Origin: a virus
Lineage: Duplodnaviria; Heunggongvirae; Uroviricota; Caudoviricetes
Direction: 5' to 3' (one strand)
Virus record (IMG/VR): IMGVR_UViG_2713896799_000019
DNA length: 14,514 bases
Positions 9,566 through 10,295 of the stretch are shown piece after piece; position 1 is the first letter of the stretch, and the number at the start of each line of letters is the position of its first letter. The notes under the pieces are model-generated. The model was not told the origin of the DNA, ran no database searches, and saw only the letters and a program-made list of their open reading frames with translations. Both the position numbers and the translations under genes were made by a program.

Positions 9566-9584
9566 ATTTTATAACCCCAATACG

Positions 9585-9608
9585 GGCGCCAGAAATGGCG
9601 CTTTTTTA
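9585..9608 (+). terminator. Rho-independent terminator-like hairpin with T6 tract downstream of J
   Basis: ggcgcc-agaaat-ggcgc followed by ttttttatt. Confidence 0.55.
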
Positions 9609-9631
9609 TTGCAGAAAAGCGAGAGGTAATT

Positions 9632-10231
9632 ATGCGTAAATTATGTGCTGTTATTCTGTCTGCAGTAGTCTGGCTGGTCGCCGCTGGTACGCCAGCGAGT
9701 GCAGCAGAGCATCAGTCCACACTAAGCGGCGGGTATCTTCAGTCCCATACTGATATGCCCGGAAACGATGACCTGAAGGGCATTAACGTGAAATACCGTT
9801 ATGAATTTACGGACACGCTGGGGCTGGTGACGTCATTCAGCTATGCAGGAGACAAGAATCGCCAGCTGACCCGTTACAGTGATACCCGCTGGCATGAAGA
9901 TTCCGTTCGTAACCGCTGGTTCAGCGTAATGGCGGGGCCGTCTGTGCGCGTGAATGAATGGTTCAGCGCGTATGCGATGGCGGGTGTGGCTTACAGCCGT
10001 GTGTCGACTTTCTCCGGGGATTATCTCCGCGTAACTGACAACAAGGGGAAAACGCACGATGTGCTGACCGGAAGTGATGACGGTCGCCACAGCAACACGT
10101 CTCTGGCGTGGGGGGCTGGCGTGCAGTTTAACCCGACCGAATCCGTGGCCATTGATATTGCTTATGAAGGCTCCGGCAGTGGTGACTGGCGCACTGACGG
10201 TTTCATCGTGGGTGTCGGTTATAAATTCTGA
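9632..10231 (+). CDS. lom: Lom/Ail-family outer membrane beta-barrel protein
   Basis: 199 aa with a signal peptide (MRKLCAVILSAVVWLVAAGTPASA). Conserved Lom blocks LKGINVKYRYEFTD, SVMAGP, SAYAMAGVA and the C-terminal DIAYEGSGSGDWRTDGFIVGVGYKF are present. RBS GAGAGG sits 5 nt upstream. Same position as lambda lom. Confidence 0.9.
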   Translation: MRKLCAVILSAVVWLVAAGTPASAAEHQSTLSGGYLQSHTDMPGNDDLKGINVKYRYEFTDTLGLVTSFSYAGDKNRQLTRYSDTRWHEDSVRNRWFSVMAGPSVRVNEWFSAYAMAGVAYSRVSTFSGDYLRVTDNKGKTHDVLTGSDDGRHSNTSLAWGAGVQFNPTESVAIDIAYEGSGSGDWRTDGFIVGVGYKF

Positions 10232-10257
10232 TTAGCCAGGTAACACAGTGTTATGAC

Positions 10258-10286
10258 AGCCCGCCGGTTCAGGCGGGCTTTTTTGT
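10258..10286 (+). terminator. Rho-independent terminator (8 bp GC stem, T-run) downstream of lom
   Basis: agcccgcc-ggttca-ggcgggct followed by tttttgt. Confidence 0.65.
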
Positions 10287-10295
10287 GGGGTGAAT

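Follow-up and report, generated by a model that had tools for sequence, protein, structure and literature searches.

The lom gene and its neighbours

The locus described here raises the question whether the lom gene in the late tail operon of a lambdoid prophage forms an insulated unit between two terminators that is expressed from the lysogen. The window, by which we mean the whole stretch of 14,514 nucleotides that was analysed, is the tail half of such a prophage. Its genes run in the order G, an unassigned ORF in the T position, the tape measure gene H, M, L, K, I, J, lom, stf and tfa, and from G to tfa every gene is on the + strand. As a whole the window is mosaic in structure: over 83-95% of its length it shares 94-97% identity with several prophages of E. 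coli. The features at and around lom are as follows.

5864..9565, + strand: J, tail tip/host specificity gene with six gpJ Pfam domains, the C-terminal receptor-binding domain among them, directly upstream of the cassette
9584..9610, + strand: upstream intrinsic-terminator-like element (stem-loop 9584-9603, GAAA loop, T-run 9602-9607, then ATT)
9621..9626, + strand: lom Shine-Dalgarno sequence GAGAGG, 5 nt before the ATG
9632..10231, + strand: lom coding sequence, predicted 199-aa precursor of an Ail/Lom 8-stranded outer-membrane beta-barrel (Pfam PF06316)
9917..9968, + strand: pair of 10-nt direct repeats TGGTTCAGCG inside lom (9917-9926 and 9959-9968)
10258..10284, + strand: downstream intrinsic-terminator-like element (stem-loop at 10258-10279 and T-run at 10279-10284), with its end 11 nt from the ATG of stf
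10296..12386, + strand: stf, side tail fibre gene (Pfam phage_tail_N and Phage_fiber_2), start aligned to lambda

The J stop codon is followed by 18 nt, the first hairpin with its T-run, 24 nt containing GAGAGG, lom, 26 nt, the second hairpin with its T-run, 11 nt and the ATG of stf. This ATG (10296) is homologous to the ATG of lambda orf-401, and the GTG at 10290 given by the ORF finder lies two codons upstream. J is 93-98% identical to lambda J up to approximately position 7900 and about 50% identical in its C-terminal part. The GC content of lom is 55-56%, that of its immediate flanks 46-50% and that of other parts of stf 56-60%; the lom value falls inside the range seen elsewhere in the window.

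Along its whole length the lom product matches Pfam PF06316 (Ail_Lom; E = 1.2e-121), with a profile score of 404 bits against a cut-off of 23 and residues 1-199 on profile positions 1-199, and it matches PHROG 108 "Lom outer membrane protein" (E = 4e-106). It is 97% identical to a sequence cluster with 24,859 members. A signal peptide is predicted from the sequence at approximately residues 1-24 (MRK, a hydrophobic run and ASA|AE), and the AF2 model has a helix at residues 2-19. Aligned to OmpX and Ail, the protein covers all eight strands, and its PDB matches are lambda Lom (9wso), OmpX and Ail. The best Foldseek matches of the AF2 model are Ail (3qrc/3qra) and OmpX (1qj9), with E of about 5e-9. 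Because the model is only moderate (pLDDT 64, from a shallow alignment, with the first strand poorly modelled), the topology was derived from the alignment to OmpX, with strand boundaries of OmpX that are reportedly those set by Vogt and Schulz in 1999. The protein ends in VGVGYKF and thus in a C-terminal aromatic residue, a barrel-assembly signal, and F199 is invariant in an alignment of Lom alleles. The window Lom is, on this predicted topology, a full-length Ail/Lom barrel. In front of the gene, GAGAGGT is invariant in an alignment of the 19 distinct upstream sequences.

The two TGGTTCAGCG repeats within lom are 42 nt apart. Lom alleles in the database carry in-frame deletions of 14 or 16 aa (proteins of 185 and 183 aa) in the stretch spanned by the repeats, for example allele P0056, seen on 70 contigs. 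Duplications of corresponding size (213 and 215 aa) occur in the same stretch. The deletion alleles were probably made by slippage or recombination and are probably inactive, because barrel strand 4 would be lost.

Divergence from lambda Lom and a shared DNA island

Related loci from viral contigs, 143 of them usable, carry three classes of Lom: the 199-aa class of the window, the 206-aa class of lambda and a 207-aa class. The lambda gene (NC_001416, 18965-19585) shares with the window its position between J and stf, the pair of hairpins with T-runs, the ribosome-site motif and the Pfam family. The two proteins are 45% identical overall, and L1 of the window protein is 8 residues shorter than that of lambda.

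According to the preliminary description, the surface loops differ from lambda Lom while the barrel strands and the C-terminus are conserved. With the OmpX-based topology, divergence was indeed concentrated in loops L1-L3, which are 24% identical to lambda Lom (16 of 66 positions), compared to 62% for the strands before residue 168 (40 of 65). Against the 207-aa class, identity was 58% in the strands and 29% in the loops. The fourth loop does not follow the pattern: over L4 and strand 8 (YEGSGSGDWRTDGFIVGVGYKF) the three classes show 100% identity. With divergence concentrated in L1-L3, it should not be taken for granted that findings made with lambda Lom or the LomW vaccine antigen apply to this allele.

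The conserved C-terminus coincides with a block of conserved DNA, found by sliding identity and alignment:

10148..10327 (about 180 nt), + strand: DNA island, 90-97% identical to lambda

Within lom the island covers the codons of strand 7, L4 and strand 8; beyond the gene it takes in the 3' UTR with the terminator as well as the ribosome site and the opening codons of stf. The 60-nt segments on either side are approximately 40-65% identical to lambda, and the same C-terminal block with its 3' UTR was found in the 207-aa class. Constraints on the barrel cannot explain conservation of the non-coding stretch. The conserved Lom C-terminus, as read from the DNA, is partly a mosaic junction and not the product of barrel constraint alone, and the island probably acts as the junction at which the lom and stf modules recombine. 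Shared junctions of this kind have been proposed to promote recombination in lambdoid phages.

Role of Lom

Adhesion and serum resistance would be properties of the window Lom at the level of the family, by analogy with lambda Lom, Ail and Rck. In a functional screen from 2025, expression of lambda Lom strongly blocked lambda-vir and not T7, and superinfection exclusion or progeny protection was proposed as its role (PMC12366544). The same report, citing Liu 2013, also states that lambda lom expression climbs dramatically late in infection.

It is conceivable, although we lean against it, that the window Lom acts as a late-expressed block to adsorption of sibling phages, serving superinfection exclusion or protection from dead-end adsorption and not lysogenic conversion, with insulation in the lysogen being secondary. 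The defence of lambda Lom against lambda-vir but not T7 and its late rise would agree with such a role, as would the location of lom between the receptor-binding genes J and stf and the concentration of divergence in L1-L3. However, the class of Lom is not tightly coupled to the receptor-binding domain of J: among the loci, coupling was loose both between Lom and J (AMI 0.42) and between Lom and Stf (AMI 0.24), the Lom class of the window being combined with seven or more J C-terminal clusters and the J type of the window with four Lom classes. Furthermore, the window allele is only 45% identical to the lambda protein for which the block was reported, and a PADLOC search with Lom gave no match. 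The more specific idea of a cognate adsorption blocker that tracks J or Stf was dropped, the loose coupling being explicable by physical linkage alone.

Transcription of lom

In lambda, lom has been reported to be transcribed from the prophage in lysogens (PMC7067206, PMC1151598), whereas one array study of a lambda lysogen failed to see it and noted that little is known about its promoter (PMC2147009). The preliminary description had named 9566-9631 as the segment in which to map a promoter; a consensus scan of this segment gave no sigma-70 match. A scan for sigma-70 promoters with position weight matrices, whose frequencies are approximate values, gave no candidate above background within 220 nt upstream of lom (best score 6.5, located 145 nt upstream, compared to a median best score of 5.7 per segment in the window). 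Nor was there a positionally conserved match among the three Lom classes, for which the scan took in the window and lambda together with four related loci. The upstream T-run is followed after only 24 nt, GAGAGG among them, by the lom ATG, which leaves no space for a promoter within the insulated unit. A promoter active in the lysogen must, given this spacing, either lie across or ahead of the hairpin, or else require an activator or a different sigma factor. For specialists, one point of note is that the lysogenic lom promoter cannot be recognised from the sequence and has to be sought elsewhere than in the gap from the upstream terminator to lom.

In lambda, polymerase from pR' that has been modified by Q passes terminators. 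Both Q and pR' are outside the window, and read-through of the lom hairpins is inferred. The proposal that lom is expressed independently of late transcription is wrong for lambda, given the late rise stated in PMC12366544 on the authority of Liu 2013; the terminators would accordingly insulate only where Q antitermination is lacking.

The upstream hairpin could be part of a lom leader, which we regard as unlikely. The lysogenic start would then be in the 3' end of J or in the J stop region, the hairpin and its U-run would function as an attenuator or as a 5'-terminal stabiliser, and lom expression would be conditional. The 24-nt spacing, by which any promoter overlaps or precedes the hairpin, speaks for this reading, together with a weak TATAAC at 9570-9575 that would put the start near the foot of the hairpin and the inconsistent detection of lom in lambda lysogens (PMC2147009 versus PMC1151598). 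Against it, no acceptable -35/-10 pair is present upstream and none is conserved in position across Lom classes, the sequence upstream of the hairpin varies between classes or where J has been replaced, and Rfam gave no riboswitch or leader family match. If true, a conditional leader could account for lom being detected in some lysogen studies and missed in others. The small RNA 24B_1, which is located downstream of lom in phi24B, was considered and set aside, as it belongs to another genomic context and is absent from lambda according to the authors (PMC4426718).

The hairpins on both sides of lom

The upstream hairpin (9584-9603, GGGCGCCAGAAATGGCGCTT) folds with -15.2 kcal/mol (z = -3.7) and the downstream hairpin (10258-10279, AGCCCGCCGGTTCAGGCGGGCT) with -18.3 kcal/mol (z = -3.5); in each case 1 of 200 shuffled sequences was as good. 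Both consist of 8 pairs, including 5 (upstream) and 7 (downstream) G-C pairs, and are followed by six T. A pattern scan of the window gave 30 terminator-like sites where 14 were expected, most of them weak, and the only two + strand hairpins with at least 8 pairs in the 14.5 kb are those flanking lom. On the minus strand, no T-run follows either hairpin in the sequence, indicating that both point along late transcription.

The upstream hairpin with its T-run is kept in 138 and the downstream one in 136 of the 143 loci, counts that are not independent and overstate the support because the loci were chosen for their similarity and are closely related. The exceptions are for the most part truncated loci or ones with a wrongly called start. 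The upstream T-run starts 29-31 nt before the ATG, and the T-run directly after each stem is nearly invariant. Among the 19 distinct sequences of the upstream stem, 92.7% of the cells are paired, and 12 cells have changed on both sides. The compensatory changes turn G-C into A-U at one pair (6 rows) and C-G into U-A at its neighbour (4 rows), and G-U intermediates also occur. In 500 shuffles, neither the observed covariation nor the observed paired fraction was matched, and shifted registers were 35-60% paired. In lambda the corresponding stem has a different sequence (CGTCCG/CGGGCG compared to GGGCGCC/GGCGC in the window), and TATTAT, which the window class lacks, follows its T-run. Because of the compensatory variants and the comparison with lambda, the upstream stem reads clearly as a selected structure. 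In the downstream stem, 96% of the cells are paired and single-sided changes mostly keep G-U pairs; no double changes occur among the loci, and this stem is nearly invariant and gives no covariation signal.

Rather than terminating transcription, the hairpins might mainly be processing or stability elements of the long late transcript that shield the RNA upstream of them from 3' exonucleases. That the stems are stable and GC-rich and stand at gene ends within a polycistronic operon would suit such a role, and so would the fact that Q-modified polymerase ignores terminators in the lytic cycle. We nevertheless consider it improbable as the main function, since the near-invariant T-run after each stem is needed by a terminator and not by a protective hairpin; the two roles are, moreover, not mutually exclusive. 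That the hairpins are functionless chance palindromes is practically negligible as an explanation: although a simple scan yields many weak terminator-like sites, these two are the best + strand matches (z of about -3.6), their fixed position in approximately 96% of the 143 loci and the compensatory changes contradict chance, and both elements occur in lambda in spite of the different stem sequence.

An Rfam search gave nothing at lom, neither with the whole window at the gathering threshold nor with 9450-10350 at E <= 5. Weak Trp_leader and RyhB matches were rejected, as they reflect no more than the terminator hairpin.

Several sequence variants of the hairpins were noted. In the window, the upstream hairpin is without one C of the 3' arm at 9600-9603 (GGCGC-TTTTTT compared to the consensus GGCGCC-TTTTTT), a variant seen in 2 of 124 loci with the window itself counted; it weakens the stem slightly, and the folding energy with flanking pairs is still -15.2 kcal/mol. 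Locus L137 (approximately 1455-1472) has an inverted loop in the upstream hairpin, GGCGCC ATTTCT GGCGCC instead of AGAAAT. Here the reverse complement of the whole palindrome is present, which suggests hairpin-mediated inversion. In a few loci the homology of the cassette stops at the hairpins (L015 upstream of 1455, L047 at 2150-2330 and L132 at approximately 1440-1460). The sequence before the first hairpin of L015 resembles what we take to be the C-terminus of an IS3-type transposase, that after the second hairpin of L047 is presumably an IS200-type hairpin with an MGNEKSLAHTR start, and the junction of L132 is inside the 5' arm of the first hairpin. A mobile cassette bounded by the hairpins, as L015 and L047 might have indicated, was discarded because their flanks look like IS elements.

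A lambda-type accessory-gene cassette

The layout proposed in the preliminary description, an Ail/Lom gene between two terminators within the late tail operon, is borne out by the PF06316 match, the two strong + strand hairpins and the one-strand operon. The further step to an insulated unit expressed in the lysogen holds in part: the layout is real and is that of lambda, for which prophage expression is on record (PMC7067206, PMC1151598), but no promoter was found. Taken together, we think it likely that the tail region of this lambdoid prophage carries an ordinary lambda-type cassette with lom as its accessory gene, with termination predicted from the hairpins and with read-through under Q and insulation in the prophage as would be expected from lambda.

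During lytic growth, Q-modified polymerase would pass both terminators, placing J, lom, stf and tfa on one late transcript. In the repressed prophage, where Q is lacking, the upstream terminator would halt stray transcription coming from the tail genes, and the downstream terminator would halt lom-directed or stray transcripts before stf, a gene without space for its own promoter. Low-level expression of lom in the lysogen, as reported for lambda, would need a start that overlaps or precedes the upstream hairpin. At the cell surface, the variable L1-L3 and the conserved L4 of Lom would be exposed, and by analogy its role may be lysogenic conversion (adhesion) or a block to adsorption of sibling phages.

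Such cassettes are common. An 831-nt region matched 4,747 of the 5,426 complete genomes of E. coli, the median copy number being two per genome, and 228 matching phage records are annotated as Lom. The lom cassette is already known, in the textbook arrangement of lambda, and is present in most E. coli genomes; the significance of the present case is little beyond correct annotation.

Other features of the window

The N-terminal domain of Stf (10296-10715) is at most 57% identical over the aligned length to any of 50,697 phage records, and only its first 40 residues, corresponding to the conserved DNA island, match better (72.5%). By these matches it is a divergent variant of the fibre-attachment domain.

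Directly after tfa, a hairpin (AACCCCGG...CCGGGGTT, 12993-13015) has T/A-rich runs on both sides and is probably a bidirectional terminator that closes both the late operon and the convergent ORF6N gene. On the minus strand, 13025-13865 contains an Rfam C4 antisense RNA (13641-13725, 78.9 bits) and an isrK Hfq-binding RNA (13753-13829, 72.7 bits), downstream of which is an ORF with an ORF6N domain (13025-13636), and a sigma-70 match of 11/12 is located at 13865-13836. This segment is an IsrK/antirepressor-type module transcribed towards the tail fibre genes, presumably resembling that of Gifsy-1.

The last 37 codons of ompW are present at 14063-14176 (+ strand; NCBIfam OmpW positions 176-212 of 212, E = 3e-16) with no upstream ompW sequence, indicating that the prophage ends here (approximately 14050-14063) and that its integration site is ompW (yciD). 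At 14236-14514 (- strand) there is a partial ORF for which no family match was found and which we take to be the yciE-like chromosomal neighbour.

Comparison with known systems

Ail of Yersinia, OmpX of E. coli and Rck and PagC of Salmonella share with the window Lom the 8-stranded fold and the C-terminal GY[KR]F. These relatives are chromosomal or plasmid-borne, whereas Lom is carried by a phage within the late operon, and in the alignment its L2 and L3 regions are much longer than those of OmpX. Lom scores below the NCBIfam equivalog cut-offs for Rck (119 compared to 258 bits) and OmpX (107 compared to 176 bits), indicating that it is neither of these. Chain C of PDB 9wso is a solved structure with full-length lambda Lom; J is not present in this entry, and its other chains may reveal a binding partner of Lom.

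The cor genes of phi80, N15 and HK022 and llp of T5 are receptor-blocking genes that sit beside receptor-binding genes, and their products are small lipoproteins or inner proteins that target FhuA. Like these genes, lom is placed beside tail tip and fibre genes, and an anti-adsorption effect has been reported for lambda Lom (PMC12366544). In contrast to Cor and Llp, Lom is a beta-barrel without a known target, and the anti-adsorption report concerns lambda Lom and not the allele of the window.

A further parallel is found in the morons of lambdoid phages, a concept of Juhala and Hendrix (reviewed in PMC3594210) with HK97 gene 15 and lambda bor as examples. No lom is present between the J-like gene and the fibre genes of Yersinia phage P840 or Seuratvirus GottfriedDienst, and the gene is dispensable in lambda (PMC10695390). 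Its absence from these more distant siphophages indicates that lom is an add-on. Like a moron, it is a dispensable gene between conserved structural genes with its own downstream terminator, and the lambda copy is reported to be expressed from the prophage. It differs from morons in that the defining upstream promoter is not recognisable and a terminator sits where that promoter would be expected. Apart from this defining promoter, the lom cassette matches a moron in its layout and, by analogy with lambda, may do so in its transcription from the prophage as well.
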